Assembly: GCA_963514005.1 (NCBI GenBank)
Contig: OY740795.1
Coordinates: 744,001 to 808,000 of the forward strand
DNA length: 64,000 nt
Source of the DNA: Raja brachyura
Taxonomy: Eukaryota
Direction of reading: 5' to 3'
The position numbers were made by a program, and so were the translations under genes. Shown here in pieces: positions 9,696 through 38,768 of the stretch (position 1 is its first letter; every line of letters begins with the position of its first letter). Below the pieces are notes generated by a model. The model made no database searches, was not told the DNA's origin, and was given only the letters and a program-made list of their open reading frames with translations.

Positions 9696-11902
9696 CCGCT
9701 GCAAAAACAGCAGATTATCTTTGAAAAGAATACCTCGTTATTGTGCCATGATATGTCTTTTCAATGATGAAAGGAAATCATAAATATAACCCGTTGCACC
9801 TATTCAACAACAAATCTTCACTCGTTTTCAAAGCAATATGTCCCAGGCGTGTGTACACATATCATGAAAACACAGAAGTTGAATGATTGAACGGGGTACA
9901 TGATGATATCTACAAGACGTTCGACTCAATTGAGCCCATGAACCTACTTTGCAGGTGTGCGTGCCCGACAGGGCGAATGGACATAAAATGTCTACACATT
10001 AAATGCTGTCTTTTCGCATAAACCCTACAGCAAAGCAACGCATGAAACCCAGCTGGTCACTCGTTTTTGTTATATTATTTTAACTTACACTTTACCGATT
10101 TTAATATCTTTCCAGGGTAAATGACCGGAAAAAGTCTGTCCAGGCATTGCTCATAAACACGTTCAAACTTCGATACGCAATAAAATGTACAACACTTGTG
10201 GCGCAGAGCAGGATGATGCAGCTCGAGATTGCCAGAAATAAAACGGCCGACCGTCTGCGATTCACCATCTCCTGGACTTTCTTTTTCTCCCCACCGCTGA
10301 AGTCTCGGAAATTTCTGTGGATTCGACTGGCCACGAAAATACGTCTTGCAGTGAGCGCGTTAAACAACAAAATCAGGCGGAATGGTATCGCCAGGGTGAA
10401 AAACTGTTCGGTCCAAGAGAACACCATCCATTCTGGACGCATGTACAAATGGACACGTTTCCGGCAGCCATGCGGTCCACCCCATCCGGGATAAGGAAAG
10501 TAGGCGAAGGGCATGGGTGGGGTTTTGAGGCAGACGAATGGGATCACTGTGAGGATAACATTCGATGCGGTTCTCTCGGTGCAATATTTAGTTTTCATGC
10601 CCTGAGTAGAGATCGCAACAAAGCGATCAAACGTGAAAGCGACTGTGAATAATACAGAACAATTCACCGTGACGGATACCAGGAAGATTGTTATTTTGCA
10701 CACAGGGGTGTAGTGCAAGGAAGCATGCCACCAATACAGATCAGCAATGCGGTGAAATATAACCTCACAGAGAATCACAGAGAGGTCCGCGTTCGCCATG
10801 GCTACCATGTAACGAGTGATGCACTTGGAAAGGCCGCACTTGCAACGGGACAATATCAAAATCGCCATCAGATTCACTGGGAAAGAATGAAAACAGAAAT
10901 TAATTAATTGTCTGGTGTACGGGCTGGTGGGAGGAAGCGGACCGAGTAATTTAACCCTGAGACGCCAGTAGTAGAGACAATTTATTTAACGAATTAATAT
11001 TTGGGAGAATCATCCGTCATTCGTTTGCCAGAAAAATGTTTAATCATTAAATTTTAAATAGGTGATTACCAAAATTAGTGGGATTGCCTTATGAAGATCG
11101 AAAGAGAAGGACATGAAGATGGAAAGAGGCAATCCAATTTTGGTAAACAGGAATGTAATCTGCAAATGATTAAAATCCTGTTTACCAAAATTAGTGGGAT
11201 TGCCTTTTCTACTAATATTCACAACATAATGCCAATCGTTTGATTTTGATGTAAAATATAGAACATATTCAACAGGACAGTCAGTTTCTCAAAAATGAAA
11301 TTAACACTCGAAATTACCGTCGATCAAATCAGAATTAAGAGGGGATCCTTCCAGTATCAAATATTTGATATAATTTTTATAACGGTAAATTCTAATGCAC
11401 AGTATAATTTTTATTGCTGAGACGTGAGCAACTTTTGCATCGGGCACTGAGTCAATCGTGGTCTGGATTAACGCGACCTGTTTTCCAATGGGCCTTCGAG
11501 AATGCATTTCCGAACATGAGACCAAGGAAATGGATTCAGTGAAGCACTGCAAATATAATTACAAACACCCTTCACAAACACGGCTAACACTATTTTGGCA
11601 GGTAGTTTCTCCGAACAGCGGGCGGAATTCCGTATCGTACCTGAAAAGAACAAGTCCTGGAGTATCTCAGTGGCGCAATCAACATTTCTGGACGACACAC
11701 ATCGGCGATGTATCATCTCGAGCCCCTTTTTTCAGAATCCGATTGGAAGAATGATATCAAACCGATACGTCAACTTCGTCGGTCCTCCAGAGATGCTGCA
11801 AGACTGACTGAGTTAACCAGTTCTTTGTTTTCACTGGAGCAGATTGTTGTGGAACAGTTTGATTGTACGACCTTCAAATCTGTCCCAGCATTCCTGTGAG
11901 AA

Positions 11903-12258
11903 GAACAGGTGAAGCTCGCCGTTTGACCTGTTTTTACAAAATGTTAAATGGTCAGCTAGACATAGATCACAAGACCTACACCAACCTAAAACCAATTAGG
12001 AGCAGACGAGGGCATTCGATCCAATTTGTGGTCCCAGCCACAAAGACAGATGTGTGCAGCAATTCGTTCTTCCCACGCACTATTAAAGCATGGAATAAAC
12101 TCCACCAAACCACGGTTTCCCAGCCAGATGCAAATCAATTTAAAGTGGCACTTTCTTCCAAATAATCCTCTCTGGCTTACCACTCCCTTCACCACCTCCA
12201 GTTTAAATTCCAGTTGGAATATTTTGGAGGACCAAGTAACCACGAACCAAGAACAAAT
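11903..12258 (+). mobile_element. LINE 3'-end fragment (CR1/L2 supergroup) in the GPCR intron
   Basis: Encodes FYKMLNG...NSFFPRTIKAWNKL, then an AACCAAG-like tail. Absent from the paralogous intron near 38100. Confidence 0.75.
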
Positions 12259-12529
12259 AATTTAAGAGCGATACAGAAAATGCAGTGTAAAATTACTGGA
12301 CGGGGTGCATTCCTCGTTCTGTCGAATGCAGAACGCACAGTGGATCAGAAATTGCCACTGACAGCGAGGACCAAGTTGCCCTTCACTTCGCAACAGTGCA
12401 TGTACGGGCATTGAGTTTGGTAAAACGCCGTGAAGGCTACATTTCTCCAGCTTCACTGAACGACATCCATCGAATATACCAACGCGCTTCCTCGCTGCTA
12501 AGATGTGTATTCCTTGTTTCGTTTTAGTT

Positions 12530-12715
12530 AAGGGATACAGCGCGCACACTAACACCAGCTCCCGCACACAAGGGACAATTTATTTTATTTTATGGAGTGA
12601 GGAGGAAATCAGAAGATGTCGGGGAAAACCCAGAAGGTAACGGGGAGGACGTACACACTCCGTACAGACAAGCGCAGTAAGATAACTATTCTGGTGCTGC
12701 GCCACCGTGCCGCCC
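12530..12715 (-). mobile_element. tRNA-derived SINE (V-SINE/HE1-like), degenerate
   Basis: Reverse complement starts GGGCGGCACGGTGGCGCAGC and contains the GTACGTCCTCCCCG..GGGTTTTCCCCG core. Paralogue at 38380-38595. Confidence 0.7.
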
Positions 12716-13195
12716 TAACTCCTGCTGGGCTATTCGGTATGTTCTCTTAACCTTTAATACTCTGCGCTTTTCAAACAGTCTTTGTAAGTTCCATGAGATG
12801 TGCTGACAATTACCTACCAGGTAAACCGATTGCTGCCAGAATCGGATAATACACAAGTCCTATTTTTTCCTCGATCGGAATACCGTGCATTTTAATGCGA
12901 AAGTCCAGGCGATCACGGCAGATGGAGCCGCCCTGCGGTTGTCAGCGAAACAAACCAATATCTGGCATATCTATAATGAAAATAATGGAGAACGCAGACA
13001 AGGAGATTACATCCCTGAGGGCTTAACTTACACATTTTTGAACAAACTTCTACTGTTTTCCATGTAATATTCAAAATCACTATCATGGTGTCGACATTTC
13101 CAACAGCAGACAGTGAACCATGGATTTTGCAAATCCCAAACTATCGCGCGCGCAGCGAAATTGCCGGCGAGGGTTGTACCTGTTCTACTCGCGTT

Positions 13196-13485
13196 TCCAA
13201 ACCTACACAAACCCCAAACCAATTAGGAGCAGGCTAGGGCATTCGATCAAATTAGTGGTCCCAGCCACAAAGACAGATGTGTGCAGCAATTCGTTCTTCC
13301 CACGCACTATTAAAGCATGGAATAATCTCCACCAAACCACGGTTGCCCAGCCAGATGCAACTAAATTGTAAGTGGCACTTTCTTCCTAATAACCCTCTCT
13401 GGCTTACCCGCTCCCTTCACCCTCCAGTATAAATTCCAGTTGGAATATTTTGGAGGACCAAGTAACCAAGAACCAAGAACCAAAC
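13196..13485 (+). mobile_element. Second copy of the same LINE 3'-end fragment
   Basis: Near-identical to about 11970-12255 (SNSFFPRTIKAWNNL; AACCAAG repeats). Confidence 0.75.
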
Positions 13486-13959
13486 AGCGATAACAGGGAG
13501 AGAGCGGGACGCAGGGCAGGCACCTCACCTTATCTACGGGTAACACAGGGTACACAGGGTCGGATATCTCCGAAAAGTGGCGGTTTGGGGGAAAGAGCAA
13601 CAAAAGAGAGAAGACCAGGAGCCGGATCCGCCTCCAAATAAGTAGTTGATTACTTGAGAAAATCTGAATCTACAATATGAGAGAAGGGCCTTTTGGCAGA
13701 GATGCTGAGCGATGTGATTGTTTAGTCAGGGGAGAATTAATCTCCACAGGCCAGATCTCTGGGTAAGGTGCCCGCCATTTAAAACGAGTTGACATTAATA
13801 TATGCGATAATCTGTCCCAATGGCAAGTAGACGTCCTGTCATTAAATATTCAAGCACGAGACGGATATGTTTTGAGATGGGAATCATTGCATTGAAGGGG
13901 AATACAATCTAATCTGATATCAATAAAATCTAGAACAGTTTTGAACAGTCGAGCACATG

Positions 13960-15280
13960 AGTGGCTGATGCTGTACAATGTGGATATATGTGAGGTTATC
14001 CACTTCGATGGCAAGAACGAGAAAGCGGATTATTATCTGAATGGTGTCAGATTCTGAAAAAGGGAGGTGCAACGAGACCTGGATGCAGACTGAAAGTATG
14101 CATGCAGGTGCAGATGTCAGCGAAGAGAACTAATGGCATGTTGTCCTTCATAGCGAGAAGATTTAAGTTGACGAGCAAAGAGGTCCAACTGCAGTTGCAC
14201 AAGGCCCTGGTGAAACCACAACTGGAACATTGTGTGCAGTTTTGGTCTCCTAATTCTTGTTGGAGAGGAAGTGAAGTGCAGGTTTACCAGATTAATTTCC
14301 GGGATGCCGGAAAAGACACATCTTGAAGCAATGGGGTTGCTGGGTTTGTAATCACTGGAATTTAGGATGAGAGGGTAGCATATGGAAACATAACATTCTT
14401 AGCGCATTAGACAATACACAATGGACAATAGGTGCAGGGGGAGGCCAGACTGCCCTTCAAGCCAGCACACCCATTCAATGTAATCATGGCTGATCATTCA
14501 CAATCAGTACCCCGTTCCTGCTTTCTCCCCATATTCCCTGACTCCGCTATCTTCAAGAAACCTATCTAGCTCTCTCTTGAAAGTATCCAGATAACCGGCC
14601 CCCACCGCACTCTGAGCTAGACAATTACACAGACCCACAACTCTCGGTGTGAAAAAGTATTTCCTCTTCTCAGTTCAAAACGGCTTACCCCTTATTCTTA
14701 AACGGTGCCCCTGGTTCTGGACTACCCCAACATCGGGAACATGTTTCCTGCCTCTTGCTTGTCCAAACACGTAATAATATTTTATGTTTCAATAAGATCC
14801 TCTCTCACCCAACTAAATTCCAGAGTAAAACAAGCCCAGCCGCTCCATTCTCTCAGCACGTGACAGTCACATCATCGCGGGAATTAAGCTTGTGAACCTA
14901 CGCTGCACTCCCTGAAAAACAAAAAAATTGGAGCGGCTAGATGCAGGACATTTCTTGCGAATATTGAGGGAGTCCAGAAACCGAGGGTCGCAGTTTACGA
15001 ATAAGGGGTAGGCTAGTTAGAAACAATGAAACAAAAAAATCAATGCAGGAGTAGGCCATTCGGCCCTTCGACCCAGAACCGCCATTCAATATGATTATGG
15101 ATGATCATCTAAAATTAGTACCCCGTTCCTGTTTACTCCCCGTATCCCTTGATTCCTTTAGCCCCAAGAGCTAAATCTACGTTTTTCTTGAAGTATCCAG
15201 TGAATTGACCTTCACTGTCTTCTGTGGCGGAGAATTCTACAGATTCACAACTCTCTGGGTGAGGAAGTTTTTTCTCACGA
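13960..15280. mobile_element. Cluster of old nested CR1 3' fragments on both strands
   Basis: Degenerate CR1 ORF2 C-terminal and 3' UTR sequence. Partly paralogous to 38970-39560. Confidence 0.75.
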
Positions 15281-15486
15281 GGTAGATAGTTTTGCAGGAC
15301 TGCTCTCGAGTTGTGTTAGGATGGTTCAGTTGCCTGATAACTGCAGGGAAACAACTTTCCCTAAATCTGGATGAGTGAGTTTTGCACACATCTGTACCTT
15401 CTGCCAGATTGGAGAGGGGACTGTGCCTTCACCCTATCTACTACCCCCATATGTTCAGTTGACTGAATGGTTCAAATAGTCTACTG

Positions 15487-15730
15487 AACGTCAGAGAAAC
15501 GTCAGAGCCACATCAGATGCTTCACATCAGATGCCAGGCCACCAAACAAAGCAGCAGATTTAACGATCCTCTTCTCAAACTCTCCATCACCTCGAACATC
15601 GATTTTCAGAAATTCCCAGAACACCGCCCGCAACGAAACGAACAGGCCAGCCGAGGTTCCGGCTCATTCTCCGAGACAGGGGCAGTATCTGCCGGGGGAC
15701 CTGGACTCCAGCATCTTGTCACGTAACCCA
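15487..15730 (+). promoter_or_regulatory. Putative NAR-TCR V promoter region
   Basis: Tandem AACGTCAGAG x2 (CRE half-sites) and CACATCAGATGC x2 (E-box CAGATG) at 15487-15534. CRE-like TGTCACGTAA at 15717-15726, about 30 bp before the leader ATG. Motif inference only. Confidence 0.4.
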
Positions 15731-15752
15731 TTATTTTCCCGGAGAACGCGCG

Positions 15753-15795
15753 ATGGGAATCCTCCTGTTTTTTGTACTGTCACTCTGCTTACGCC
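15753..15795 (+). CDS. NAR-TCR V leader exon (MGILLFFVLSLCLR, phase 1)
   Basis: ATG, a hydrophobic stretch and a GTGAGT donor at 15796. A 153-bp intron ends in a pyrimidine tract and CACAG at 15948, in frame with the V exon. Confidence 0.92.
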
Positions 15796-15948
15796 GTGAG
15801 TACCGGTCCCCTACTCCCGCACAGTTCGGGTTGAACATAAAACAACCCGAGTCCACTCCGACCTGAATTTCAAACACTGTCCGCGATTTATCCTTCTTCC
15901 GTGGTTCGCGCGAATTCCCACTCACCTCTCCCTGTGTTTCATCCACAG

Positions 15949-16241
15949 ACACCTTCAGTCAGTCAGTGACCCAGAGCCCGAGTACGGTGACTGGAAAAGA
16001 GTGCCAACCTGTCACCATCACCTGCCTTTTCAATGAAGGTTCCTGGGGTAACTACGAATTTAAGGTTGGACATTTCTTCAAGCGTGCACAACCCGGTGCT
16101 GAACGGCAGCGGATCACAACAGGTGGACGGGTTGTTGTGTCGACCAATAAAGCGGAAAATACCTTTACGTTGAAAATTCTTGGTTTAAGAGTTGAGGACA
16201 TGGCCACCTATATCTGTCAAGCTGAGTACTGGTGGAGAGAG
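15949..16241 (+). CDS. NAR-TCR V segment (IgNAR-like variable domain), germline, open
   Basis: Encodes (H)TFSQSVTQSPSTVTGKECQPVTITC...GHFFKR...RITTGGRVVVSTNKAENTFTLKILGLRVEDMATYICQAEYWWRE. 63 residues lie between the canonical cysteines, with no conventional CDR2 (vNAR-like). Extra FR1 Cys. RSS directly follows. Confidence 0.9.
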
Positions 16242-16279
16242 CACAGTGATGGGACTGCGGTTCCAGCAATACAAAAATC
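16242..16279 (+). other. 23-type RSS of NAR-TCR V
   Basis: CACAGTG, 22-bp spacer, ACAAAAATC. Confidence 0.95.
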
Positions 16280-16601
16280 CTGACGGCAGAATCTAGTAGC
16301 AACGTGTGGACGCGAGGTGAATCCACCGGGTAACCCACGGTTCCGCCTTGTCCCGCCTGCACTTCATTTTGGGTTGTACCGGATGAAATGCTTGCGATTC
16401 AAACAATGGGGTTTCTCTATTTGGCGAATGCGGCTGGATAATGCCCCCTTTACCTACAATGGTGTAAACGAACTGCCATCGAGAATGACTGACCACTCTT
16501 CTAATGCACAACTCCAGACAGGATCTAGTTACAGAAACTGCAATCTGAAAATGCATTCGCTGAACGTTAATCTCCTGCCCGCCCGTCTCGCCGGGCGCCT
16601 G

Positions 16602-16630
16602 GGGATATGTAAGCGACGTGAAACAACGTG
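16602..16630 (+). other. 5' 12-type RSS of the D segment (non-consensus)
   Basis: GGGATATGT (6/9 to GGTTTTTGT), 13-bp spacer, CAACGTG (consensus CACTGTG, terminal GTG kept). Confidence 0.65.
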
Positions 16631-16645
16631 TGGGACTGGAATATC
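16631..16645 (+). CDS. NAR-TCR D segment TGGGACTGGAATATC
   Basis: 15 bp between two heptamers, located between V and J. Reads WDWNI, GTGI or GLEY; all frames open. Confidence 0.88.
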
Positions 16646-16673
16646 CACAGTGGAACAGAGTCGAATAAAAACT
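16646..16673 (+). other. 3' 12-RSS of the D segment
   Basis: CACAGTG, 12-bp spacer, ATAAAAACT (7/9). Confidence 0.9.
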
Positions 16674-16987
16674 CACCCCATTTAAGATATATATATGTTC
16701 GTGGGTTCTGGAACCAAAATCAAATGATTGTTGTCCGTGACGCTGTAGTCCAGATAAATTGCATAGGGATTGCCACATTCCCGTTAATATTCCTTATAAT
16801 TGTTTCCGTGTTTGTCAAAGCACACCAGTCTGCGCGGGGGATCACTCTGCTCTTAGCTCTGTTTCTTTGGGGGGGAACAGGTCGACCACCGAGGATTGGG
16901 GAGCAAGGACAGTTACTGGTTGGTCTGAAACGCCTTGAATAATTGGACAGCGCGTCTTATGTTTCCCGGGCAAATCAAGGTGAGAAC

Positions 16988-17026
16988 TGTTCTTGTACTG
17001 CGAGCATCGAGAGACGGGGCACTGTG
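16988..17026 (+). other. 23-RSS of NAR-TCR J
   Basis: TGTTCTTGT, 23-bp spacer, perfect CACTGTG. Confidence 0.93.
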
Positions 17027-17084
17027 GCTTCATGGGCCACTTACTATCAGGATGGGACGGGGACTACGGTGACTGTCACAGCCG
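17027..17084 (+). CDS. NAR-TCR J segment (ASWATYYQDGTGTTVTVTA)
   Basis: Follows the RSS. IgNAR-type DGxGTxVTV motif instead of W/FGxG. Phase-1 GTGAGT donor at 17085. Confidence 0.93.
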
Positions 17085-17619
17085 GTGAGTAGCATAATCC
17101 ACTCTTATCCACTGCTGTTCTTGGAAATATGCCGTTTCCTTTAATATTGGGTCATGAGGCATCAATTGGTTTCCAATTGGAACAGATCCTATTTGTAAAA
17201 GGGATCCAGCAACTTGGTACAGATGTTACGGTACGGGCGAGTCCACGGAGAGGATATGTGGGGCTCCACGGGAGAACAAAGCTAATCAGGTTCAATAATA
17301 GCCTCTTCCCTAAAACAATCAGGGTCGGGAACACCACGCAGTGCAAACCACAGCTATGAATTTCTATGCAGACACAAGGAAATACGGAAGCTGAAATCGG
17401 AATCTGAAGTCAAGATACCAAATGTCGGCTATCAATGTTCTCCCGAAATACTGCTGACCCGCGCAGTTAATGCTGCCACCAAACCACCGGCTTGCTCCAA
17501 AACACTATGTGAATTCACCCTCTTCGTCGACAAGTTACTGCACTACGTTCTGTTGATAAACTTTTCATAATTGTCTATACAAAGGATTTGTTTTTTTTGT
17601 TGCCCTAGGATTGTGGCCA

Positions 17620-19920
17620 TTGAATTATTGAGTTCGTTTTTGGATCATATAGTATGAGAAGAATGGGGTAATCGTACGGAAGTGTAGAAAATCATGGAAA
17701 GAATACATCGGGTAGATACGCAGAGTCCCTTGTGAAGAGTTGGAGAGTCGAGATCCGGAGGACACAGGTTTAAGCTGAAGGGGAAGATTTAATACGATTT
17801 GAGGGGTAACGTTTTCACACGGAGAGTACTGGGTGTACAGAACAAGTTGCCAGAGCACATAATTGAAGCTGACACTATCCCACTGTTTAAGAATCAGTTA
17901 GACAAGTACATGGACAGGACAGGTTTGTATGGATTTGGAACAAACGCGGGCAGCTGGCACTAATGCAGCTGTGACATGTTGGACGGTTGGGCGACGTGAG
18001 CCGAAGAACCAGTTTCCGCGATATATCGCTCCATGACTCTATGACGGTGTTATCTGATAAAGCATATTTCATTTCTAGGCCTGTGTAGATCTACAAGTAA
18101 GAATGTCACTGTTCTATTGTCGGAACAGATTACATTTGAACACCCTGGAATAGTAACTTTTGATTCTAGCGGGCAATGACTGTTGGCCTTAACAACTATG
18201 CCCACATCCAATATAAAGAAAAAACCATAACGCATAGAAGCAGAGTTAGGCCATTTGCTCGCTGTCGGAAATGAAAACGAAAAGTTCGTGGGTGTAGACT
18301 GCGATATGTACCAAGAGTCAATTCAGAGAAAATGGGGAAAGTATCCGAGTTTGGAGTGTGAGGACGAAATGCCGAGTCAATGCTGCTCAAATCTCAGTCA
18401 GAGTAACCAGAGTGATCAAAACGTATCCTTCTCAAGTCCAGTCCTAGTGTGACGGCTAGGAGTTAGCAAACGCTTCTGATGCGCGACCGAATGATCCCCT
18501 ACATAATTCGCGTAAACTTCCGTTTGGCAATCTCCAAAGCCACCATATCCTTCCACAGATACGGGGCCCAAAACTGCGCGCGATATTCCAAATGTGATCA
18601 AATCAGTGCCTAAAAAACGACCATTTGCATTAGATCCCTGTTACCATATTCTAGTCATCTCGAAATGAATGCTAAAATGTAATATGTCACCCTCAACGAC
18701 GATTCACTCTGGAATTCTGGAATTTTGGAATTCCCGCACCAATTTTCCCAAGTCTCTTTGCAGCTCAATTTCTGAATCCTCTCCTGATACAGAAAATAAT
18801 CGACATCGTTATTCCTTCCGCCAAAGTGCATGGACGTATAGTGTGCTGTGGAGTATTCCATCTGCCACTATTTGCCCCCTCTTCCAACCTGTTCAAGTAA
18901 CTCTGCAGACTCCATGCTTGCTCAACACTACATGCCCCTTCACCTATGTTTGGCATCGTCCGCGATATCAGCCGCAAAGCCATCAATTCCATCATCCAGC
19001 TCGTAAACATACAACGGGAAAAGTAGTGGACACAACATTGACCCATTAGTCAAAGGCAGCAAGAGAAAAAGATAACATTTGACCTGAAACGGACAGCCTA
19101 TCCACATTGACACCTTATCTATAACACCAATACTCCAATCTTAATTAGCGGCATCGCGTCCTGCACCGTTTAATATGCATCAGAAAATTTAAGTAAGCAG
19201 CATTCCTGACTTTCCTTTGTCCATCCTGCTTGTTACGTTCACAAAGAATGTCAACAGATTTGAAAGGCAAGAGCCCCCCCCCCCCCCCCCAACCCCTGCT
19301 GACTTCCCCGCTTTTAACGTGTTTTATCATGTGCTTCAAGGTAATTAGAACCTCATTTTTACTAAGGGTCTCTAAAATCTTACCAACTATTGAAGTCATG
19401 CTAACGGCCTTATCATTACAGCGGGCTGCGAGTGAAGCTGGACCCACTGTAAACATTCCACAAACTGAAATCAAACGACAGCTGCCAGAACTGTTGAAAC
19501 GGTTCTCGGGAGGGGAAAATATGAACCGCAAGCAGCAAAAAGCGGGCGACCAAGATTGAAAACTAAAACTGTTCTTCAATTAAATGAAAGTAAAACGTAG
19601 AAGTACGTGGCCCAGTAAAAATAAAAACAACTCTTAATACAAAGCATTTATCCCGGTTTGTGTAAATTGCACTTACAAGATGACTATCCAGTTGTTAAAC
19701 ACGGAAGGCAGTGGAGGCCAAGTCAGGGGTAAAAAATAAAGCAGCGATTGATAGATTCACGATTAGTCGAAGCGTCAGAGGTTATTGTTATTGCGGAGAA
19801 TGCAGGAGAATTGGGTTCGCAAGGTGAGATAGTTCAGCCATCATTGAATGGCGGAGTAGCCTTGATGGATCGAATGGCCTAATTATACTTCTATCACATG
19901 ACCTTATTACCTTATGCCTT
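17620..19920. mobile_element. Old CR1 and SINE fragments in the J to V-delta intron
   Basis: CR1 3' ends on + (about 17620-18040 and 19700-19915). Degenerate RT on - (about 18440-19410; MHFGGRNNDVDYFL). Confidence 0.6.
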
Positions 19921-20692: not shown

Positions 20693-20998
20693 ACTCAATT
20701 TCCGCGGGTTCCCAGAGTTCGCCTCAACAATCCTCTCTTTCTGGTGACACTGTTACTCTTAACTGCGAATATTCCGGATTCTGCTCGTACACAGTACACT
20801 GGTACCGACAGTTCCCAGGGCAGGCTCTGGAATTCCTGCTCCAAAGACACACTTCAGGAAAACAAGATAAGGAAGAGGCTGCCGAAGGCCGTATTACCGG
20901 TTCACTCGATCCTGACCAGAAAATCAGTCAGTTAACGTTATCTGAATTACTGCCGAGCGACGAGGCTGTGTATTACTGTGGGATGAGTCCACGCATCG
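20693..20998 (+). CDS. Leaderless supporting TCR-delta V exon of the NAR-TCR cassette
   Basis: TTATTTTCTGCAG acceptor, phase 1, in frame with the J donor. Encodes DSISAGSQ...VTLNCEYSGFCSYTVHWYRQFPGQALEFLL...DEAVYYCGMSPRI, with canonical C/W/YYC and an extra CDR1 Cys. No leader exon seen upstream. Confidence 0.92.
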
Positions 20999-21037
20999 CA
21001 CAGTGACACCGCGCAGTGAGATAGCTGTACCAAAACC
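20999..21037 (+). other. 23-RSS of supporting V-delta
   Basis: CACAGTG, 23-bp spacer, ACCAAAACC (8/9). Confidence 0.95.
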
Positions 21038-26015: not shown

Positions 26016-26029
26016 TCTGGCCAAGAAGG

Positions 26030-26288: not shown

Positions 26289-26289
26289 G

Positions 26290-27192: not shown

Positions 27193-28990
27193 TGAAATAA
27201 AAATATAAAAGATTCATACCACCAATTTTCACCTTTATTTAGCTGGAACGAAACTTACAAATTCGTTTCACGAGAGATCAGCAAGCTTTAAAAATCCCAC
27301 ATTAAGGCTTTGTAGAGTTGATCGGGAGAATCATCAATATATATATAACACATGCAATATACTTTCAACGGGGACAACATCGGAGAAGGTAAGACTTTAC
27401 CAACTGAATTGAAGGCATTTGCACTATGCAGGCTGCTACATTCAAAGAAACACACTCGTAGGAAAATAGACAATTGTCTTCGTTGCGATTGTGCCAACTA
27501 AATGGCGAGAAATATGGTTCACAATTTTCCCCATCGCTTAGAATAATTCCGCTCAGATTTACTTTTCACGGAATCCGCGACAAAATATGTCCCGGTGAAG
27601 GGATGCTGCATGATAATATTGGCAGAGTTGACGTATGGACAGCTGGAGGAGTGTATTATCACTTAATTTATTAACAATTGGTTTGTTAAGAAGAGTGCGC
27701 GAGCGATGATTTTTTTTAGAACAAGATAACTTCATTTTAATTCATCATTGACAGAATATTTTATTTTCTTCACAGATTGCGAGGGAAGAGGAGAAATGGG
27801 TAGGTACAAAGATAACCCTCCACGTTGTAGTATCAGGGAAACATTATGCGGCTTACTGCCTCTTAACAGCAAATTAACAGAAGGCAGTATCTCTGGAGGA
27901 AAAGAATGGATGACGTTTCTGGTCAGGATCATTCTTCCCCCGAGAGTAGGACGAGGCCACTGGATGCAAGAGTAGGCCAGAACAAGGCATGGAAGGCAAC
28001 ACATGTCTGAGAAAGAAATTAGCCCATGATCGCCCATTGTTGGCTGGGAATACGTGGTAACGAACAACTACAAAGATGCGAACAGTACAACTAGCATGAT
28101 GACTTGGTTGGGGGAGAGATTGAGAGAATATTAGACATGCGACATACGAGATGCAGTTCCTCCATTGATTGCGTGGCCTCGCTCTAAAAGTTGAGGTGGA
28201 CAACGACAGAAGGGATTATATGGGAATGGGAAGAGGTATTAAAATGTTTGCCCTCTGGGAGAACGTAAAGGCAAATGCGGAAATTGATTTGTTACCGTAG
28301 ATAGGACCATAGAATCACAGTCATAGAGTGATACACTGTGGTAGCAGGACCTTCCGCCCATCTCGCCACACTGGCCAACAATATATCAGTTACACTAGTC
28401 TGGAAGGGGACCGACTTAACAAGAGGGGGACCGACCTTCTGGCAGGCAGGTTTGCTAGGGCTGCACGTGTGGGTTTAAACTAAATAGTGGGGGGAGGGAT
28501 TGACAAGTCGGGAGTATAAAGATGGAGTTGAGGGGGAAGTGGCTACAGGGAAAAATACAAAAGCTTCTCGATTTAATGGGATGGAAAGCTCGAGAATAGA
28601 CAAAAGATTATGGCCAGGGACAATTGCGAGTGGTGCGAGGGGGGAAGTGAATATGGAGGTGAAAGTGCTGTATATGAATGCACGAAGTATAAGGAATAAA
28701 GTGGACGAGCTTGAGGCACAGTTAGAAACTGGCAAGTGTGATGTTGTGGGAACTACTGAGACATGGCTGCAAGAGGGCCAAGGTTGGGAACTGAATTTTC
28801 AAGGGGGGAAGACAGACAGGTGGGTAGAGGGGATGGGGTTGTCATGTTGGTGAGGAATGAAATTCAGTCCCTTGCAAGGGGTGACATTGAAACACGAGAT
28901 GTGGAGTCAGTATGGATGGAACTATGGAATTGAAAGGGTAAGAAGACCCTAAAGGGACTAATCTACAGGTCCCAAACAGTAGCCTGGAGA

Positions 28991-29743
28991 TTGTTTCTCG
29001 ACAAGTCCTTCAGTGAGATTGTTACACCCAAGGCACTAGAAGAGAGAAGGTGGGTGACGGTGAGAAAGGGAGGAAAACATGGGATGCAAAGGTCCCCGGG
29101 TGTTGTACCTCTTGTGAACAGGTTCACCCACGTGGAAGCTGCCGGGACAGAAGACGGTATCCCACTGAGCGGCGGACTGGCTTGCCAAACAAAAAGGGCT
29201 GATGTGCCAAACCCACAGAGGCCAAAGTCGGGCAACGCCATTGTAGTTGGAGACTCCATTGTGAGAGGTACGGACAGGGGTTTTTGCGGCAACAGACGGG
29301 ATTCCAGGATGGTGTGCTGCCTTCCTGGTGCCAGGATCCAGGATGTTACGGACAGAGTGCAGACAATCCTCAAGGGCGAAGGTGACCAGCCGGAAGTGGT
29401 CGTGCATGTTGGCACAAATGATGTTGGAAAGAAGGAGATGAATTTTTTGCAGCGGGACTTCAGAGAGCTCGGAAAAATGCTGAAAAGCAGGACTTCCAGG
29501 GTTGTTATCTCCGGTTTGCTTCCAGTTCCTCGTGCTGGCGAGAGCAGGAACAGGGAGATATGGGACCTGAATGTGTGGCTGAGGAACTGGTGCAGGGGGC
29601 AGGGATTTAGATTCTTAGATCACTGGGATTCTTTTTATAGTAAGGGGGAACTGTACAAAAGGGACGGATTGCATCTTAACAGGTGGGGGACCAGCATTCT
29701 GGCCGGCAGGTTTGCCACTGCTACACGGATGGTTTTAAACTGA
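28991..29743 (+). CDS. CR1 ORF1 (SGNH/GDSL esterase-like), 5'-truncated
   Basis: Motifs VVGDSIVRG, LPGA, VVVHVGTNDV and DGLHLN. Confidence 0.88.
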   Translation: MFLDKSFSEIVTPKALEERRWVTVRKGGKHGMQRSPGVVPLVNRFTHVEAAGTEDGIPLSGGLACQTKRADVPNPQRPKSGNAIVVGDSIVRGTDRGFCGNRRDSRMVCCLPGARIQDVTDRVQTILKGEGDQPEVVVHVGTNDVGKKEMNFLQRDFRELGKMLKSRTSRVVISGLLPVPRAGESRNREIWDLNVWLRNWCRGQGFRFLDHWDSFYSKGELYKRDGLHLNRWGTSILAGRFATATRMVLN

Positions 29744-32700
29744 ATAAGGGGGGTGGGGTATCAAATGGGATAGTCGAGGACGGAGTTAGAGGGAAAGAGA
29801 GTAAAGCGATGGTTAATGACCCCAGAATTAACGGGGAAGAAAGCTCACAAAGGGATAGGAGAGTATGGCCAAGTGTAATAGGGATCGATGTGAAAGGGGC
29901 CACTTGTCAACATCATTGTATAAGGAGTAAGAGTGTTGTAAAAACAAGCCTGAAGGCTTTGTGTCTCAATGCGAGGAGCATTCGTAATAAGGTGGATGAG
30001 TTGAAGGTGCAGATAGCGATTAATGACTATGCTATAGTTGGAATCACGGAGACTTGGCTCCAGGATGACCAAGGTTGGGAGCTGAACATCCAGGGATATT
30101 CAATATTCAGGAGGGATAGACGAAAAGGAAAAGGAGGTGGGGTAGCGTTGCTGGTGAGAGAGGAGATTAATGCAATAGAAAGGAAGGACATTAGCGTGGA
30201 GGATGTGGAATCGATATGGGTAGAGCTGCGAAACTCTAAGGGGCAGAAAACGCTAGTGGGAACTGTGTACAGGCCACCTAACAGTAGTATTGGAGTTGGG
30301 GATGGCATCAAACAGGAAATTAGAAATGCGTGCAACAAGGGTAACACGGTTATAATGGGTGACTTCAATCTGCATGTAGATTGGGTGAATCAAATTGGCA
30401 GGGGTGCTGAGGAAGAGGATTTCCTGGAATGTATGCGGGATAGTTTTCTCAACCAACATGTGGAGGAACCAACGAGAGAGCAGGCTATCCTAGACTGGGT
30501 ATTGAGTAATGAGGAAGGGTTAGTTAGCAGTCTTGTTGTGCGTGGCCCCTTGGGCAAGAGTGACCATAATATGGTTGAGTTCTTCATTAGGATGGAGAGT
30601 GACAAAATTAAGTCAGAAACAAGGGTTCTGAACTTGAACAAAGGTAACTTTGAAGGTATGAGATGTGAATTGGCCAAGATAGACTGGCAGGTGATTCTTA
30701 AAGGGTTGACAGTGGATGTGCAATGGAAGGTATTTAAAGACTGCATGGATGAAGTACAAAAGTTGTTCATACCAGTTTGGCAAAAGAATAAATCGGGGAA
30801 GGTGGTGCATCCATGGATAACAAGGGAAATCAGGGATAGTATAAAAACAAAAGATGAGGCATACAAATTTGCCAGAAAAAGCAGCCTACCGGAGGACTGG
30901 GAGAAATTCAGAATCCAGCAGAGGAGGACAAAGGGCTTAATTAGGAAAGGGAAAATAGATTATGAAAGGAAACTGGCAGGGAACATAAAAACTGACTGCA
31001 AAAGTTTTTATAGATATGTAAAGAGAAAGAGACTAGTTAAAACAAATGTTGGTCCCTTGCAGTCAGAAACAGGTGAATTGATCATGGGGAACAAGGACAT
31101 GGCAGACCAATTGAATAACTACTTTGGTTCTGTCTTCACTAAGGAAGACATAAATAATCTGCCGGAAATAGCAGTGCAACGGGGGTCAAATAAGATGGAG
31201 GAACTGAGTGAAATCCAGGTTAGCCGGGAGGTGGTGTTGGGTAAATTGAACGGATTGAAGGCCGATAAATCCCCAGGGCCAGATAGTCTGCATCCCAGAG
31301 TACTCAAGGAGGTAGCCACAGAAATAGTGGATGCATTAGTGATAATTTTTCAAAATTCCTTAGATTCTGGAGTAGTTCCTGAGGATTGGAGGGTAGCTAA
31401 TGTAACCCCACTTTTTAAAAAAGGAGGGAGAGAGAAAGCGGGGAATTACAGACCAGTTAGTCTAACATCGGTAGTGGGGAAACTGCTAGAGTCAGTTATT
31501 AAAGATGGGATAGCAGCGCATTTGGAAAGTGGTGAAATCATTGGACAAAGTCAGCATGGATTTACGAAAGGTAAATCATGTCTGACAAATCTGATAGAAT
31601 TTTTCGAGGATGTAACTAGTAGAGTGGATAAGGGAGAACCAGTGGATGTGTTATATCTAGACTTTCAGAAGGCTTTCGACAAGGTCCCGCATAAGAGATT
31701 AGCATACAAACTTAAAGCACACGGTATTGGGGGTTCAGTATTGATGTGGATAGAGAACTGGCTAGCAGACAGGAGGCAAAGGGTAGGAGTAAACGGGTCC
31801 TTTTCAGAATGGCAGGCAGTGACTAGTGGGGTGCCGCAAGGCTCAGTGCTGGGACCCCAGCTATTTACAATATATATTAATGATTTGGACGAGGGAATTC
31901 AATGCAACATCTCCAAATTTGCAGATGATACCAAGCTGGGGGGTATAGTTAGGTGTGAGGAGGATGCTTGGAGGCTGCAGGGTGATTTGGATAGGCTGAG
32001 TGAATGGGCAGATGCATGGCAGATGCAGTACAATGTGGATAAATGTGAGGTTATCCACTTTGGTGGCAAAAACATGAGGGTAGACTATTATCTGAATGGT
32101 GGCAGATTAGGTAAGGGGGAGATGCAACGAGACCTGGGTGTCATGGTACACCAGTCATTGAAAGTAGGCATGCAGGTGCAGCAGGCAGTGAAGAAAGCAA
32201 ATGGTATGTTAGCATTCATAGCGAAAGGATTTGAGTATAGGAGCAGGGAGGTTCTACTGCAGTTGTACAGGGTTTTGGTGAGGCCACACCTGGAGTACTG
32301 CGTACAGTTTTGGTCTCCAAATCTGAGGAAAGACATCCTTGCCATAGAGGGGGTACAGAGAAGATTCACCAGACTGATTCCTGGGATGTCAGGACTTTCA
32401 TATGAGGAAAGATTGGATAGACTCGGTTTGTACTCGATGGAATTTAGAAGATTGAGGGGGGATCTTATAGAAACCTACAAAATTCTTAAGGGGTTGGACA
32501 AGCTAGATGCTGGAAGATTGTTCCCGATGTTGGGGGAGTCCAGAACAAGGGGTCACAGTCTAAGGATAAGGGGGAATTCCTTTAGGACCGAAATGAGGAA
32601 AACATTCTTTACACAGAGAGTGGTGAGTCTCTGGAATTCTCTGCCACAGAAGGTAGTTGAGGCCAGTTCATTGGCTATATTTAAGAGGGCATTAGATGTG

Positions 32701-32853
32701 GCACTTGTGGCTAAAGGGATCAGGGGGTATGGAGAGAAGGCAGGTACGGGATACTGAGTTGGATGATCAGCCATGATCACATTGAATGGCGGTGCAGGCT
32801 CGAAGGGCCGAATGGCCTACTCCTGCACCTATTTTCTATGTCTATTTTCTATG
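28992..32853 (+). mobile_element. Young CR1 LINE, 5'-truncated in ORF1, with intact ORF2
   Basis: Inserted at GGAGAT|AGG of the host CR1; the empty site is seen near 6240. TTCTATG tail at the 3' end. Confidence 0.95.
29683..32757 (+). CDS. CR1 ORF2: APE endonuclease plus reverse transcriptase, uninterrupted (1024 codons; true start uncertain)
   Basis: Endonuclease motifs LNARS, GITETWL, GDFN, SDHN. RT motifs KSPGPD, NYRPVSLTS, QGSVLGP, FADD. No stops. Confidence 0.95.
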   Translation: MGDQHSGRQVCHCYTDGFKLNKGGGVSNGIVEDGVRGKESKAMVNDPRINGEESSQRDRRVWPSVIGIDVKGATCQHHCIRSKSVVKTSLKALCLNARSIRNKVDELKVQIAINDYAIVGITETWLQDDQGWELNIQGYSIFRRDRRKGKGGGVALLVREEINAIERKDISVEDVESIWVELRNSKGQKTLVGTVYRPPNSSIGVGDGIKQEIRNACNKGNTVIMGDFNLHVDWVNQIGRGAEEEDFLECMRDSFLNQHVEEPTREQAILDWVLSNEEGLVSSLVVRGPLGKSDHNMVEFFIRMESDKIKSETRVLNLNKGNFEGMRCELAKIDWQVILKGLTVDVQWKVFKDCMDEVQKLFIPVWQKNKSGKVVHPWITREIRDSIKTKDEAYKFARKSSLPEDWEKFRIQQRRTKGLIRKGKIDYERKLAGNIKTDCKSFYRYVKRKRLVKTNVGPLQSETGELIMGNKDMADQLNNYFGSVFTKEDINNLPEIAVQRGSNKMEELSEIQVSREVVLGKLNGLKADKSPGPDSLHPRVLKEVATEIVDALVIIFQNSLDSGVVPEDWRVANVTPLFKKGGREKAGNYRPVSLTSVVGKLLESVIKDGIAAHLESGEIIGQSQHGFTKGKSCLTNLIEFFEDVTSRVDKGEPVDVLYLDFQKAFDKVPHKRLAYKLKAHGIGGSVLMWIENWLADRRQRVGVNGSFSEWQAVTSGVPQGSVLGPQLFTIYINDLDEGIQCNISKFADDTKLGGIVRCEEDAWRLQGDLDRLSEWADAWQMQYNVDKCEVIHFGGKNMRVDYYLNGGRLGKGEMQRDLGVMVHQSLKVGMQVQQAVKKANGMLAFIAKGFEYRSREVLLQLYRVLVRPHLEYCVQFWSPNLRKDILAIEGVQRRFTRLIPGMSGLSYEERLDRLGLYSMEFRRLRGDLIETYKILKGLDKLDAGRLFPMLGESRTRGHSLRIRGNSFRTEMRKTFFTQRVVSLWNSLPQKVVEASSLAIFKRALDVALVAKGIRGYGEKAGTGY

Positions 32854-35800
32854 ATAGGTCGCAAGTTGAATCAGGAGTTAAAATGGGCAAGTAGTAAACG
32901 TACTTCTGTGGTGGTTATCGGAGATTTCAACATGCAGATGGACTGGGAAAATCAGGTTGGTACTGGAGCCCAAGAAACGGACTTTGTAGAGTGCCTTCGT
33001 AATGGATTATTTGAACAGCTTGTATTGGAGCCTACAAGAGAGAAGGCAATTCTGGATTTAGTGTTATGTAATGAACCGGATTTTATAAAGGACCTCGAGG
33101 TTAATGAGCCATTAGGAGGCAGTGACCATAACATGGTCAGGTTTCCTCCACAATTGGAGAGGGAGAAGGGTAGATCGGAGGTGTCGGTGTTATAGTTGAA
33201 TAAATGGGACTAAGGGGCCATGAGCGATGAGCTGGCCAGTGTTGACTGGAAATATACACTAGCAGGGACAAAAATGGTAGGTTGTTCTAGGAATAATACA
33301 GAAGGTGCAGGATCATTTCATTCCTAGGAGGAAGAAAGATTCCAAGGGGAGAAAATTACGTCCATGGCTTAGAAGGGACGTTAGTGACATTATAAAAATT
33401 AAAGCGAAGAAGTACATCGTATCAAAGATGAGCGGGTAGCAAGTAGATCGGGTAATGTTTAAGGAACAACAGAAGATAACTAAAAATACAATACCGGAAG
33501 AAATATGAAGTACCAAGATAAGCTAGCCAAGAATATAAAGCAGGATATTAAAAGCGTGTTTAGGTATGTGAAGAGGAAAGAAATAGTAAAGACCAAAGTT
33601 GGACCCTTGAAGACCGAAAAAGGTGCATTTATTATGGAGAACATGGAAATGGCAGATGATTTGAACAGTTACTTTGGATCTGTCTTCACTAAGTAGGACA
33701 CAAACAATCTTCCTGATATAGTATTGGCCAGAGGATCTGGGGTGACGGAGGAACTGAAGGAAATCCACATTAGGCAGGAAATGGTGTTGGATAGACCTAT
33801 GGGACTGAAGGCTGTTAAATACCCAAGCCTGATGGTTTGCATCAGAAGGGTACTTCAGGACGTGGCTCCAGAAATGCATTGATGCATTGGTGATATTTTT
33901 CCAATGTTCTATAGCCTCAGGATCTGTCCCTGTGGATTGGAGGGTTGCTAATGATATCCTACTTTTAAGAAAGGTGGGAGAGAGAAAACAGGGGATTACA
34001 GACCAGTTAGCCTGACATAGGTGGTGGTGAAGATGCTGGAGACAATTATAAAACATGAAATAGCCGAACATTTGGATAGTAGTAACAGGATCGGTCCGAA
34101 TCAGCATGCGTTTACGAAGGGGAAATCATGCTTGACTAATCTTCTGGAATTTTTTTGAAGATATAACTAGGAAAATGGACAAAGGAGAGCCAGTGGATGT
34201 AGTGTATCTGGAATTTCAGAAAACATTTCATAAGGTCCGACATAGGAAATTAGTGGGCAAAATTAGGGCGCATGGTATTGGGGGTAGAGTGCTGACATGG
34301 ATAAAGAAGTGGTTGCCAGACAGGAAACAACGAGTAGGGATTAACCGGTCCCTTTCAGAATTGCAGGCAGTGACTAGTGGGGTAGCGCAAGGCTCGGTGC
34401 TGGGACAGCAGCTATTTACAATATACATGAATGATTTGGATGAAGGGATTCAAAGTAACATCAGCAAATTTGCAGATGACATGAAGCTGGGTGGCAGTGT
34501 GAACTATGAGGAGGATGCTATAAGAATGCAGGGTGACTTGGACAGGTTGGGGGAGTGGGCAGATGCATGGCAGATGAAGTTTAATGCGGATAAATGTGAG
34601 GTTATCCAGCTTGGCAGCAAAAACAGGAAGGCACATTACTGTCTAAATGGTATCAATTTGGAAAAAACGGAAATACAACGGGATCTGTGGGTCCTTGTGC
34701 ATCAGTCTATGAAAGTAAGCATGCAGGTAAAGCAGGCAGTGAAGAAAGCGAATGGCATGCTGGCCTGTATAACCTTGGAATCTAATATAAGAACAAAGAC
34801 GTCCTTCCGCAGTTGTGCAGAGCCCTAGTGAGACCACACCTGGAGTATTGTGTGCAGTTTTGGTCCCCTAATTTGAGGAAGGACTTTCTTGCTATTGAGG
34901 GAGTGCAGCGTAGGTTTACAAGGTTAATTCCCGGGATGCCGGGACTGTCATGTGCTGAAAGAATGGAGGAGCTGGGCTTGAACGCTCTGGAGTTTAGAAG
35001 GATGAGAGGGGATCTCATTGAAAGACATAGGATTTTCAAGGGCTTGGACAGCCTAGAGGCAGGAAACATGTTGCCGATGTTTGGGGAAACTGGAATCAGA
35101 GGCCACATTTTAAGTATAAGGAGTAAGCCGTTTCGAACGCAGAAGAGAAAACACTTTTACTCACAGAGAGTGGCGAGTCTGTGGAATTCTCTGCCTCACA
35201 GGGCGATGGAGGCGGATTCTCTGGATGCTGACAAGAGAGAACTGGATAGGTCTCTTAAAAATAGTGGAGTCAGGGGATATGGGGAGAAGGCGGGAACGAG
35301 GCACTGATTGGGGATGATCAGCCATGATCACAATGAATGGCGGTGCTGGCTCGAAGGGCCGAATGGCCTACTCCTGCAGCTATTCTCTATTGTCTATTGT
35401 CTATATTCCAGTCCCACTTGCCTGCACTTGGGCCATATCCCTTCAAATCTCTCCTATTCTATCTAACTGTTTCTTAATCGATTGGATAGTCCCAGCCTCA
35501 CTACCTCCTGTCGCAGCTTGTTCCATACACCCACTACCCTTTGTGTGGAAATGTTTCCCCACGGATTGCTATTGAATATCTTTCCTTTCTCCTTGAACCT
35601 ATGTCCTCTGGTAGTCGATTCGCTGGGCAAAAGACTCTGTGCATCTACCCGGTGTATTCCTCTCATGATTTTGTATTTCTGGCACACCTCACCTGTAGCT
35701 TTACTTTCGATAGAAGTTTTCCGCATAGAGAAGGTATTTTAAGCACGGTATCAATATGGAACTTTACACAATCTAGATCATCCGCTGTTGAAACAGCAGA

Positions 35801-36160
35801 TTCTCTTTAAGCCGTAAACCTCGTTAATGTGCAACGATACGTGTTTTCAATGATGAAAGGAAATCATAAATACAACTTGTTGCACTTATTCAACAAAAAA
35901 TCTTCACTCGTTTGAAAACATGTATGTTCCAGGCATATGTATACATATTCAAGAAAGCACATAAGTTGAATGATTGAACGGGGCACATGATGATACGTAC
36001 AAGAGGTGAGACTCAATTGAGCCCAAGAACCTACTAAGCAGGTGGGCGTGCACGACAGTGCGAATGGACATAAAATGTCCACACATTAAATGTTGTCTTT
36101 TCACACAAACGCTACCGCAAAGCAACGTATGGAGCTAGCTGGTCACTCGTTTTTGTTATA

Positions 36161-37080
36161 TTATTTGAACTTACACTTTACCGATATAAATATCTTTCCA
36201 GTGCAAATGACCGGATAGGTTAGCAGACGGGACAGATCCTCTCTGAACTTGCTCTGTGTCACAGTGTAAATCGCCGTATTGGTGCAGGAGCTCAGCAGCT
36301 GAAGCATCAATCCAACCCTTTCCAATCCACCCACATAGTCTATCCAGGTCTTGCGCATAAACACTTTCAAACTTCGATACGCTATAAAATATGCCACACT
36401 TGTGGCCCAGAGAAGGATGAAGCAGCTCGATATTGCCAGAAGTAAAACGACCGACCGTCTGCGATTCACCATCTCCTGGTCTTTATTTTTCTGCCCACCG
36501 CTGAGGTCTCGGAGATTCCTGCGGATTCGACTGGCCACGAAAATACGTCTGACGGTGAGCGTGTTAAACAACAAAATCAGGCAGAATGGAATCACCGGGG
36601 TGAACAACTGTTCGGTCCAAGAGAATGCCATCCATTCGAGGCGCATGAAAAAATGGACAAGTTTGCGGCAACCATGCGGTCTACCCCATCCGGAATAAGG
36701 AACGTAGGCGAAGGGCAAGGGTAGGTTTTTGAGGCAGACTAATGGGATCACTGTCAGGATAACAATTGACGCGGTTCTCTCGGTGCAATATTTAGTTTTC
36801 ATGTTCTGAGTAGAGATCGCAACAAAGCGATCAAAAGTGAAAGCGACTGTGAACCATACAGAGCAATTCACCGTGACGGATGCCAGGAAGATCGTTATTT
36901 TGCACACAGGAGTGTAGGGCAAGGAAGCATGCCACCAATACAGCTCAGCAATCCGGTGAAATATCACCTCACAGAGAATCACAGAGAGGTCCGCGGTCGC
37001 CATGGCAACCATGTAACGAGTGATGCGCTTGGAAAGGCCGCACTTGCCACGGGACAGGATAACAATCGCCATCAGATTCA
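36161..37080 (-). CDS. GPR139-like class A GPCR, exon 2 (intact gene, 330 aa)
   Basis: Acceptor TTTCCCAG at 37081. Hydrophobic TM segments with MAxADL (TM2), FTFDRFVAI (DRY variant), an ECL2 Cys, SSCTNTAIY (NPxxY variant) and KFR helix 8. Exons of 73 + 920 nt make 331 codons including the stop. Confidence 0.9.
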
Positions 37081-38379
37081 CTGGGAAAGGATGAAAACAG
37101 AAATCGTTTAATTGTGTGGTGTCCGCGTTGGTGGGAGGGAGCAGACGGAATAATTTAACCCTGTGTCGCCGATAGTAGAGATTATTTATGTAACGAATCA
37201 ATATTTGGGACAATCACCCGTCAAACGTTTGCCAGAGAGATGTTCATTTAGTAAATTATTCAGTTCGTGATTACCAAAATTAGTAGGATTGTCTTATGTA
37301 TAAAAGCATGACATAAAGATGGAAATATCAGTACAAAGAGTAATCCAATTTTGGTATTCAGTAATTAAATCTGCAAATGATTAAAATCCTGTTTAACAAA
37401 ATTAGTGGGATTGCCTTTTGTACTAATCGGCACAATATTATATCAATCGTTTGATGTTGATGTAAAATATAGAACATTTTCAACAGGACGGACATTGTAT
37501 CTAAAAAAAAAGAAATCAACAATCCAAATTACGGTCGGTCAAATCAGAATTAAGAGGGGATCCTCCCAATATCAAATATTTGATTTCATTTTTATAACGG
37601 TAAATGCAAATGCGCATCGTTATTTTTATTGCTGAGACGTGAGCAACGTTTGCGTCGGGGCATTGAGTCAATCGAGGTCTGTATTAACGCGGTCTGTTTT
37701 GCATTGGGCCTTCGAGAATGCATTTCCGAACATGAGACCAAGGTAAGGATTTCAGTGCAGCGCTGCAAATATAATTACAAACACCCTTCACAAACACGGC
37801 TAACAACATAACGGGCAGGTATTTTCTGCCGAACAGCGGCGCAAACAATGTCTCATGAGGACATAGGCGACGTATCAGCTCGAGCCCCTTCTTCAGACTC
37901 CGATCGGAAGAATGATCCCAACTCGATACGTCGACTGCGTCGGTCCTCCAGAGATGCTGCAAGACTGGCTGAGTTTTAACCAGATCTCTGTTGTTACTGC
38001 ACGATCGCTGCTCTTGTAGTTTACAATATCTGTATTTCTTTTTTGACCAGCAGGTTGTTCGTACGACCTTCAAATCTGTCTCCGGAAACTATCCCTATGA
38101 GAATTTAAGAGCGATACAGAAAGTGCAGTATCAAAATGTCTGGACGGGGTGTATTTAGCGTTCTGCCCAATGCAGTACGCACAGTGGGACATAAGCTGCC
38201 ACTCACAGCGAGGACGAAGTTTCGCTTCACCTCGCTACAGCGCAAGTACCGGCATTGAATTTGGAAAAACAAGCTGCGAGGGCTACATTTCTGCGAACTT
38301 CAATGAGCGGCATCGATCATATATACCAACGCGCTACCTCGCGCCCAAGATGCACATCGCTGACTTTATTTTAGTTTAG

Positions 38380-38595
38380 GGATATAGCGCGAAAACGGGA
38401 CCATCGACGCATCAAATCAGCACCGATCACGCGCCTACACACACACAAGGGGCAATTCATTTTTATTTTATGGAGCATGGGAGCAAATCGAAGATCTCGG
38501 GGAAAACCCAAAAAGATACGGAGATAACGTACAACCTCCGTACAGACAAACGCTGTAAGACAATTGCTCAAGCGCTGCGCCAGCGTGCCGCCCTA
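38380..38595 (-). mobile_element. tRNA-derived SINE in the GPCR intron
   Basis: Paralogue of 12530-12715. Confidence 0.65.
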
Positions 38596-38695
38596 ACCCG
38601 TGCTGGGCTACCCGGTATGTTCTCTTAATCTTTAATATTCTACGCTTTTCAAACAGTCTTTGTTAGTTCCATGCGATGTGCCGACCATTACATAC

Positions 38696-38768
38696 CAGGT
38701 ATACCGATTGCTGCCAAAATCGGATAATACACAAGTCCTATTTGTTCCTCAATCGGAATGCCGTGCAT
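38696..38768 (-). CDS. GPR139-like GPCR, exon 1 (MHGIPIEEQIGLVYYPILAAIGIP, phase 1)
   Basis: ATG at 38768 and a GTATGT donor. Splices in frame across a 1615-bp intron to give ...IGIP-V-NLMAIV (complete TM1). Conserved in the paralogue at 12818-12890. Confidence 0.9.

Follow-up and report, generated by a model that had tools for sequence, protein, structure and literature searches.

Class A GPCR genes interleaved and co-duplicated with NAR-TCR cassettes in the TCR alpha/delta region of the skate Raja brachyura

[quoted passage not shown] The whole stretch is referred to as the window; its contig is named C15, so that the window is C15:744,001-808,000 in a genome of 2.7 Gb, and positions in kb are those of C15. 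The arrangement is probably best explained by two multigene families on a duplication-prone chromosome end, which would have been copied together as passive neighbours and then sorted separately. A preliminary description of the window had proposed a GPCR plus NAR-TCR module as the unit of duplication, possibly under shared T-cell control. The tandem co-duplication of GPCRs and cassettes is borne out, but an obligate unit is not, since each partner also occurs or survives alone, and a co-regulated module is not supported by the sequence.

All five GPCRs that face a NAR-V are broken (at 649, 705, 755 and 809 kb, and on the scaffold C1176), and four sets of lesions are found among them. The copies at 755 and 809 kb have one common deletion; therefore, this gene was duplicated when already dead. 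The head-to-head spacers measure 2.9, 2.9, 6.5 and 13.3 kb, and 46-60% of their sequence is dispersed repeat. Each partner is also found without the other: the GPCRs at 828 and 854 kb are copied to 157 and 182 kb without a cassette (synonymous divergence, dS, 0.03-0.09), and no GPCR of the clade that adjoins the NAR cassettes (NAR-adjacent clade) accompanies the cassettes at 493 and 571 kb. The NAR-Vs (8/8) have their nearest GPCR exon 2 at a median distance of about 8.7 kb, compared with 6.7 kb in the case of 33 other Vs beyond 330 kb and 5.7 kb in that of random points, in a comparison that uses exon 2 only and merges two groups of fragments into long intervals. The NAR-Vs are thus no nearer to a GPCR than the other Vs or random points, and the closeness does not exceed what the local density of GPCRs gives. 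The sole arrangement that hints at shared T-cell regulation consists of a pseudogene and a spacer with 46% dispersed repeat. A bidirectional promoter was considered and rejected on account of the broken partner, the long interspersed nuclear element (LINE) in the spacer and the variable spacer length.

The intact GPCR copies are, on their substitution patterns, real genes under purifying selection. The pairwise ratio of nonsynonymous to synonymous substitution (dN/dS), which the preliminary description had named as a check, is 0.25-0.56 among the intact copies of the NAR-adjacent clade (p<0.03 in 8/8 pairs) and 0.11-0.20 in a second C15 lineage (significant in 5/5 pairs); the copies on contig C3 range from 0.31 to 0.99 (clearly significant in two of five pairs). 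On the branches, pN/pS is 0.26 for six intact copies vs 0.65 for five broken ones (p=0.012).

The region C3:128.5-128.9 Mb (128,525,000-128,910,000) follows the order of C15:414-480 and 547-566 kb, with ~75-87% identity, and is, by this collinearity, a displaced copy (orphon) of the TCR alpha/delta region. Its full-length GPCRs are open in all 12 tested, and broken GPCR fragments are also present. Five NAR V-J remnants have decayed, one of them still with a leader-like exon, and so have the IgM C exons. A V exon spliced to a GPCR was considered for C3 and rejected, because the remnants have stops or deletions. Also, GPCRs related to those of the orphon are found in Amblyraja on a 131-Mb contig.

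The window and the tandem units

The features of the window are as follows; TM denotes a transmembrane helix, RSS a recombination signal sequence and CDR1 the first complementarity-determining region.

1..10115, + strand: duplicated block copy 1, 99.0% identity to 53880-63999
10075..10876, - strand: GPCR-A exon 2, with a 118-bp deletion near 10132; stop at 10101, 282 aa
12818..12890, - strand: exon 1 of GPCR-A (pseudogene), ATG at 12890, 73 nt, phase-1 GT donor within TM1
12891..15752, no strand: head-to-head spacer, 2,862 bp, of which 13953-15278 is dispersed LINE-derived repeat (46%)
15753..15795, + strand: NAR-TCR V leader exon, ATG at 15753; same leader in Amblyraja models
15949..16279, + strand: NAR-type V exon and RSS; V at 15949-16241, open; RSS spacer 22 bp
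16626..16673, + strand: D segment; D at 16633-16645, good 3' 12-RSS, degenerate 5' RSS
16988..17084, + strand: 23-RSS and NAR-TCR J; J at 17027-17084, GT donor
20693..21037, + strand: leaderless supporting V-delta and 23-RSS; V-delta at 20693-20998, open, Cys in CDR1
36161..37080, - strand: exon 2 of GPCR-B (intact), open frame
38696..38768, - strand: exon 1 of GPCR-B (intact); spliced product 330 aa
53880..63999, + strand: duplicated block copy 2, unit length 53.9 kb
63959..64000, - strand: last 42 bp of a third GPCR, which continues to C15:810,685 and is broken

The three GPCR loci flank the cassette in the opposite orientation, and the pseudogene A, the intact gene B and the 42-bp piece of the third are all placed as first described. 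GPCR-A and the NAR-V are indeed head-to-head, with 2,863 bp from ATG to ATG (12890 vs 15753). The 118-bp deletion of GPCR-A removes TM7 and shifts the frame, and is shared with the copy at C15:808 kb. Past the window end, the third GPCR faces a NAR-V that is truncated, again in head-to-head orientation. GPCR-B lies 15 kb downstream of the cassette and is a class A receptor (PF00001, 61.6 bits vs a cut-off of 30.5); the GPCR alignments show the DR motif of TM3, the cysteines of TM3 and of extracellular loop 2, and an NxxxY-type motif in TM7.

Concerning the cassette, its V domain is of IgNAR type: vNAR structures dominate the top single-domain PDB matches (E ~1e-11), and a protein search with the NAR-V alone gave no candidate. 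The J donor at 17084 (phase-1) pairs in frame with the V-delta acceptor at 20693, no leader-like exon is found in the 390 nt upstream of V-delta, and skate models in RefSeq splice the same cassette parts together. Extra cysteines in framework 1 of NAR-V and in CDR1 of V-delta, which we take to be a hallmark of NAR-TCR, are both present in the window translations. The cassette lies upstream of, and in the same orientation (+) as, the D-J-C1-like region described below. It is the only one of the four in the tandem array with all parts open; the others decay separately (664 kb lacks the RSS of both D and J, the V-delta of 713 kb, at 722 kb, is frameshifted, and the NAR-V of 813 kb is truncated). 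The 5' RSS of D (window 16605-16632) is degenerate, with no recognisable nonamer at the 12-bp spacer, and the same is seen in the sister copy at 713 kb. As the V and J spacers (22 and 23) are unable to join directly, use of the cassette would depend on this weak D 5' signal. A further NAR V-D-J cassette is found on the 28 kb scaffold C1176, with its broken GPCR head-to-head ~19 kb away; it could represent a haplotype or else a unit left unplaced.

A self-comparison of C15:640-870 kb shows tandem units of 47-54 kb at 640-830 kb, each in the order GPCR, NAR V-D-J, V-delta, GPCR, so that the duplicated blocks of the preliminary description (1-10115 vs 53880-63999, 99.0%) are real and belong to a longer series. 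The units are unevenly alike along their length (85% to 99.9% identity), as would be expected of repeated unequal exchange; the window is largely LINE-derived, a richness that would favour such exchange. In the identity tables, which hold 4-6 copies, NAR-V 760/813 and GPCR 755/809 fit the block structure, but V-delta 765 is closest to V-delta 722. The units are therefore mosaics. One LINE at window 29680-32757 contains an open 1,025-codon endonuclease/reverse-transcriptase-like frame, which is presumably CR1-like, and decayed relatives of it are numerous throughout the window. Another type of LINE, rich in AT, is found at window 43385-46476.

The region C15:50-1,035 kb is packed with TCR alpha/delta-type V segments. 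Within it, an IgM-like cluster occupies 546-560 kb, and IgH-like Vs lie at 1,013 and 1,033 kb. Beyond it, on the + strand, three D segments, four J segments and one C1-like exon are found at 1.051-1.077 Mb. By position the C1-like exon would be C-delta (20.7 bits vs a cut-off of 21); a TCR-alpha constant exon was not found with the PF09291 profile. A block of two GPCRs and a V segment is present at 156-198 kb and again at 826-870 kb, 670 kb apart, without a NAR cassette. Also, V segments of 60-145 kb are repeated as an inverted duplication at 245-345 kb, which includes two divergent NAR-V pseudogenes (87 and 327 kb) whose J carries a 12-RSS in place of the 23-RSS.

The receptor family across the genome and in other species

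Between 50 and 978 kb of C15, 31 GPCR loci or fragments are found among 99 V segments. They comprise at least two deep lineages, and exon 2 is open over at least 299 codons in 19 of the 31. Three genome searches listed at least 119, 131 and 118 places, of 2,276-2,655 first-look candidates each; counted by hand without overlaps and two outgroup genes, the family occupies at least ~330 separate places, spread over about 30 large contigs, and some unplaced scaffolds among these may be haplotype duplicates. Concerning the second subfamily, 94 of the 131 listed scored matches are on C15, and at least 79 of these second-lineage copies are found at 4.3-6.4 Mb, around two IgNAR-like clusters at 4.85-4.99 Mb. 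Large arrays are also present at C25:11-25 Mb, interleaved with genes like those of class I of the major histocompatibility complex (MHC). There, a class II-like C1 exon lies at 12.57 Mb, and PF00129 is matched at 18.15, 20.65, 21.71, 22.90 and 24.05 Mb. The same subfamily also forms arrays at C5:30.55-30.71 Mb and at C22:44.4-44.95 Mb, the latter grouping with the C3 orphon lineage.

The preliminary description called these receptors GPR139-like. RefSeq indeed carries that label, but orthology is not supported, and 'GPR139' is, judged from the matches, a label of convenience for the family. Human GPR139 is the best or second-best match among solved structures, though a weak one (E 4e-8 to 7e-7), and the prolactin-releasing peptide receptor scores as well in one structure comparison. 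The nearest bony-vertebrate relatives are newt, coelacanth and teleost genes with 28-33% identity, and these genes, too, are far from human GPR139 (E 1e-12 to 2e-18). One-to-one orthology is rejected on the weak match and on ~330 or more paralogues (human GPR139 being absent from the tree). Olfactory receptors have their own Pfam match and a single coding exon; an olfactory identity is likewise rejected, as only PF00001 is matched here (E<=0.001) and two coding exons are present. At E<=1e-20 the database contains 1,998 related proteins, of which the best 120 comprise 118 with elasmobranch names and two without a name; the ESM Atlas gave nothing beyond generic 7tm_1 clusters. A single skate gene at C24:30,967,807-30,968,757 is 61% identical to a coelacanth 'probable GPR139' and belongs to a sister lineage of the expanded family that is conserved and lies far from human GPR139.

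The preliminary description had allowed that the linkage might be unique to this assembly. It is probably also present in two other skates and a sawfish, according to proxies (RefSeq models on contigs of equal size and with neighbouring accessions). In Leucoraja, XP_055522161 (GPCR), XP_055522162 (NAR-V and V-delta) and XP_055522163 (GPCR) are on a contig of 208,102 bp. In Amblyraja, the GPCRs XP_032890424 and XP_032890447 are found among 10 cassette models (419-426, 444-449) on one 59.9-Mb contig, and Pristis has the GPCR XP_051882913 together with cassette models 916 and 923 on a 57.8-Mb contig. A tree of 70 rows, whose root is unsure because of long outgroup branches and from which three near-identical copies of this genome were left out, groups six intact NAR-clade GPCRs with four Leucoraja and Amblyraja proteins (100/100), and this group is nested in a 41-row subfamily that sharks have as well.

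Passive neighbours as the probable explanation, and the alternatives

Under passive co-duplication, which we favour, numerous members of a very large family of orphan class A GPCRs lie between the V segments of TCR alpha/delta, and GPCRs and NAR-TCR cassettes would have been copied together in tandem duplications of 47-54 kb, after which the copies would be kept or lost independently by selection and drift. Interleaving, co-duplication, independent breakage and purifying selection are visible in the loci themselves, whereas we infer that the duplications arose through unequal crossing-over, helped by the dense LINE content. Less firmly, the intact receptors might form a ligand-sensor repertoire of elasmobranchs that is not controlled by NAR-TCR promoters; amino acids or small peptides as their ligands are our guess from the distant kinship to GPR139/142 and peptide receptors. 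Several points weigh against passive neighbours. The five broken GPCR copies are not fully independent of each other, and three of the four tandem units have an intact GPCR 8-15 kb after the supporting V-delta. The MHC class I-like genes on C25 are ringed by arrays of the same family, which could exceed coincidence. The linkage is old, given the proxies in Leucoraja, Amblyraja and Pristis and the single clade shared with the neighbours there, and the GPCRs may be expressed in T cells, as bystanders or in earnest.

It seems unlikely that the GPCR family is itself an immune-associated receptor repertoire whose arrays stay next to the antigen-receptor complex and the MHC class I-like genes through shared regulation in lymphoid or barrier tissue, acting on the whole chromosome region and not on the cassette. 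Such a repertoire would suit the ~110 GPCR copies that surround TCR V, IgM and IgNAR-like genes at C15:0-6.4 Mb, the many copies at C25:11-25 Mb among PF00129 matches (18.1-24.1 Mb), one of them 17 kb away, the constraint on the intact copies, and the linkage proxies in three other batoids. However, arrays are also present where no immune gene was seen (the 100 kb covered on C5 contain no V, and the same length on C22 has a V fragment of just 25 residues), the Ig clusters on C2, C8, C10 and C29 have no GPCR among the matches listed, and tandem families in general tend toward common chromosome ends, which also counts against such regulation. A bolder reading, to which we give a similarly low probability, is that the several hundred orphan GPCRs mislabelled 'GPR139', with their largest arrays running through the antigen-receptor complex and the MHC class I-like region, are an old immune-linked sensing system of elasmobranchs, some of them acting in T cells under TCR alpha/delta enhancers, in place of the olfactory genes beside mammalian TRA/D. 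Quite improbable, in our judgement, is the original proposal of a selected unit, in which the head-to-head pair would share a T-cell promoter or enhancer. The head-to-head geometry of five units and the co-duplication agree with it, as do CRE-like half-sites ~250 bp upstream of the NAR-V ATG in three of four cassettes, although these lie on the V side of the LINE insert; the breakage of every head-to-head GPCR, the variable, repeat-rich spacers and the occurrence of each partner without the other speak against it. An assembly artefact, with haplotypes placed in tandem, is very improbable: although units 2 and 3 are 98-99.9% identical over ~17 kb and the public contigs are not long enough to span the region, these two units diverge by 2-8% in their GPCR, NAR-V and V-delta parts, which also differ in structure, the other unit pairs are 85-97% alike, and Amblyraja has its own 10 cassette models. 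The public contigs contain no joint that matches the GPCR intron and link no GPCR to a NAR-V, which bears on neither expression nor linkage.

Comparison with known systems

Even if passive, the interleaving adds a layer to the map of elasmobranch antigen receptors, with about one GPCR locus per three V segments. A shark genome paper describes cartilaginous fish as having a paucity of GPCRs (PMC8455134), and the present family points to several hundred selected receptors in this lineage. Were its receptors shown to be lymphoid, they would amount to an innate sensing repertoire not known before, with ties to TCR, Ig and MHC. In any case, this family, overlooked so far, is a better lead than the module. 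Human GPR139 and GPR142 have a two-exon layout; the genes described here share with them the two exons and the intron in TM1, and bear the name in RefSeq, but are present in hundreds of copies instead of one.

The expansion of the family and its interleaving with NAR-TCR are apparently undescribed, although single genes are already annotated in RefSeq and olfactory GPCRs among mammalian TRA/D V segments are known. Neither the family in cartilaginous fish nor its position beside TCR genes was found in the literature covered, which excludes subscription journals and most nurse-shark TCR-delta papers. By term look-up, GPCRs are not mentioned in the passages available from PMC12227049 and PMC5931798; table S1 of the former contains only Ig, TCR, VSIG1 and PSMB5 genes of four non-skate species. 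Also, 12 of the 19 supplements of PMC12286861 gave no match.

The order of V segments, IgM and D-J-C on C15 agrees with the layout of the elasmobranch antigen-receptor complex in passages of PMC12227049. As in the NAR-TCR known from passages of that paper and of PMC5931798, a V-D-J cassette and a supporting V-delta lie among TCR alpha/delta segments, IgH-like V and IgM, upstream of the D-J-C of delta. In mammalian TRA/D, olfactory receptor genes are interspersed with TRAV1 according to a passage of PMC2275272, so that the preliminary description was correct in placing olfactory GPCR genes at its border. The skate locus resembles it in having a class A GPCR multigene family among TCR alpha/delta V segments, but the family is another one, with two exons; it spans the whole V region rather than the 5' edge, and is co-amplified with NAR-TCR cassettes. 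Concerning orphon V segments and birth-and-death families, the likeness consists of tandem duplication, independent pseudogenisation and a displaced copy (C3); the difference is that here the passenger GPCRs survived in the orphon, whereas the antigen-receptor parts decayed.

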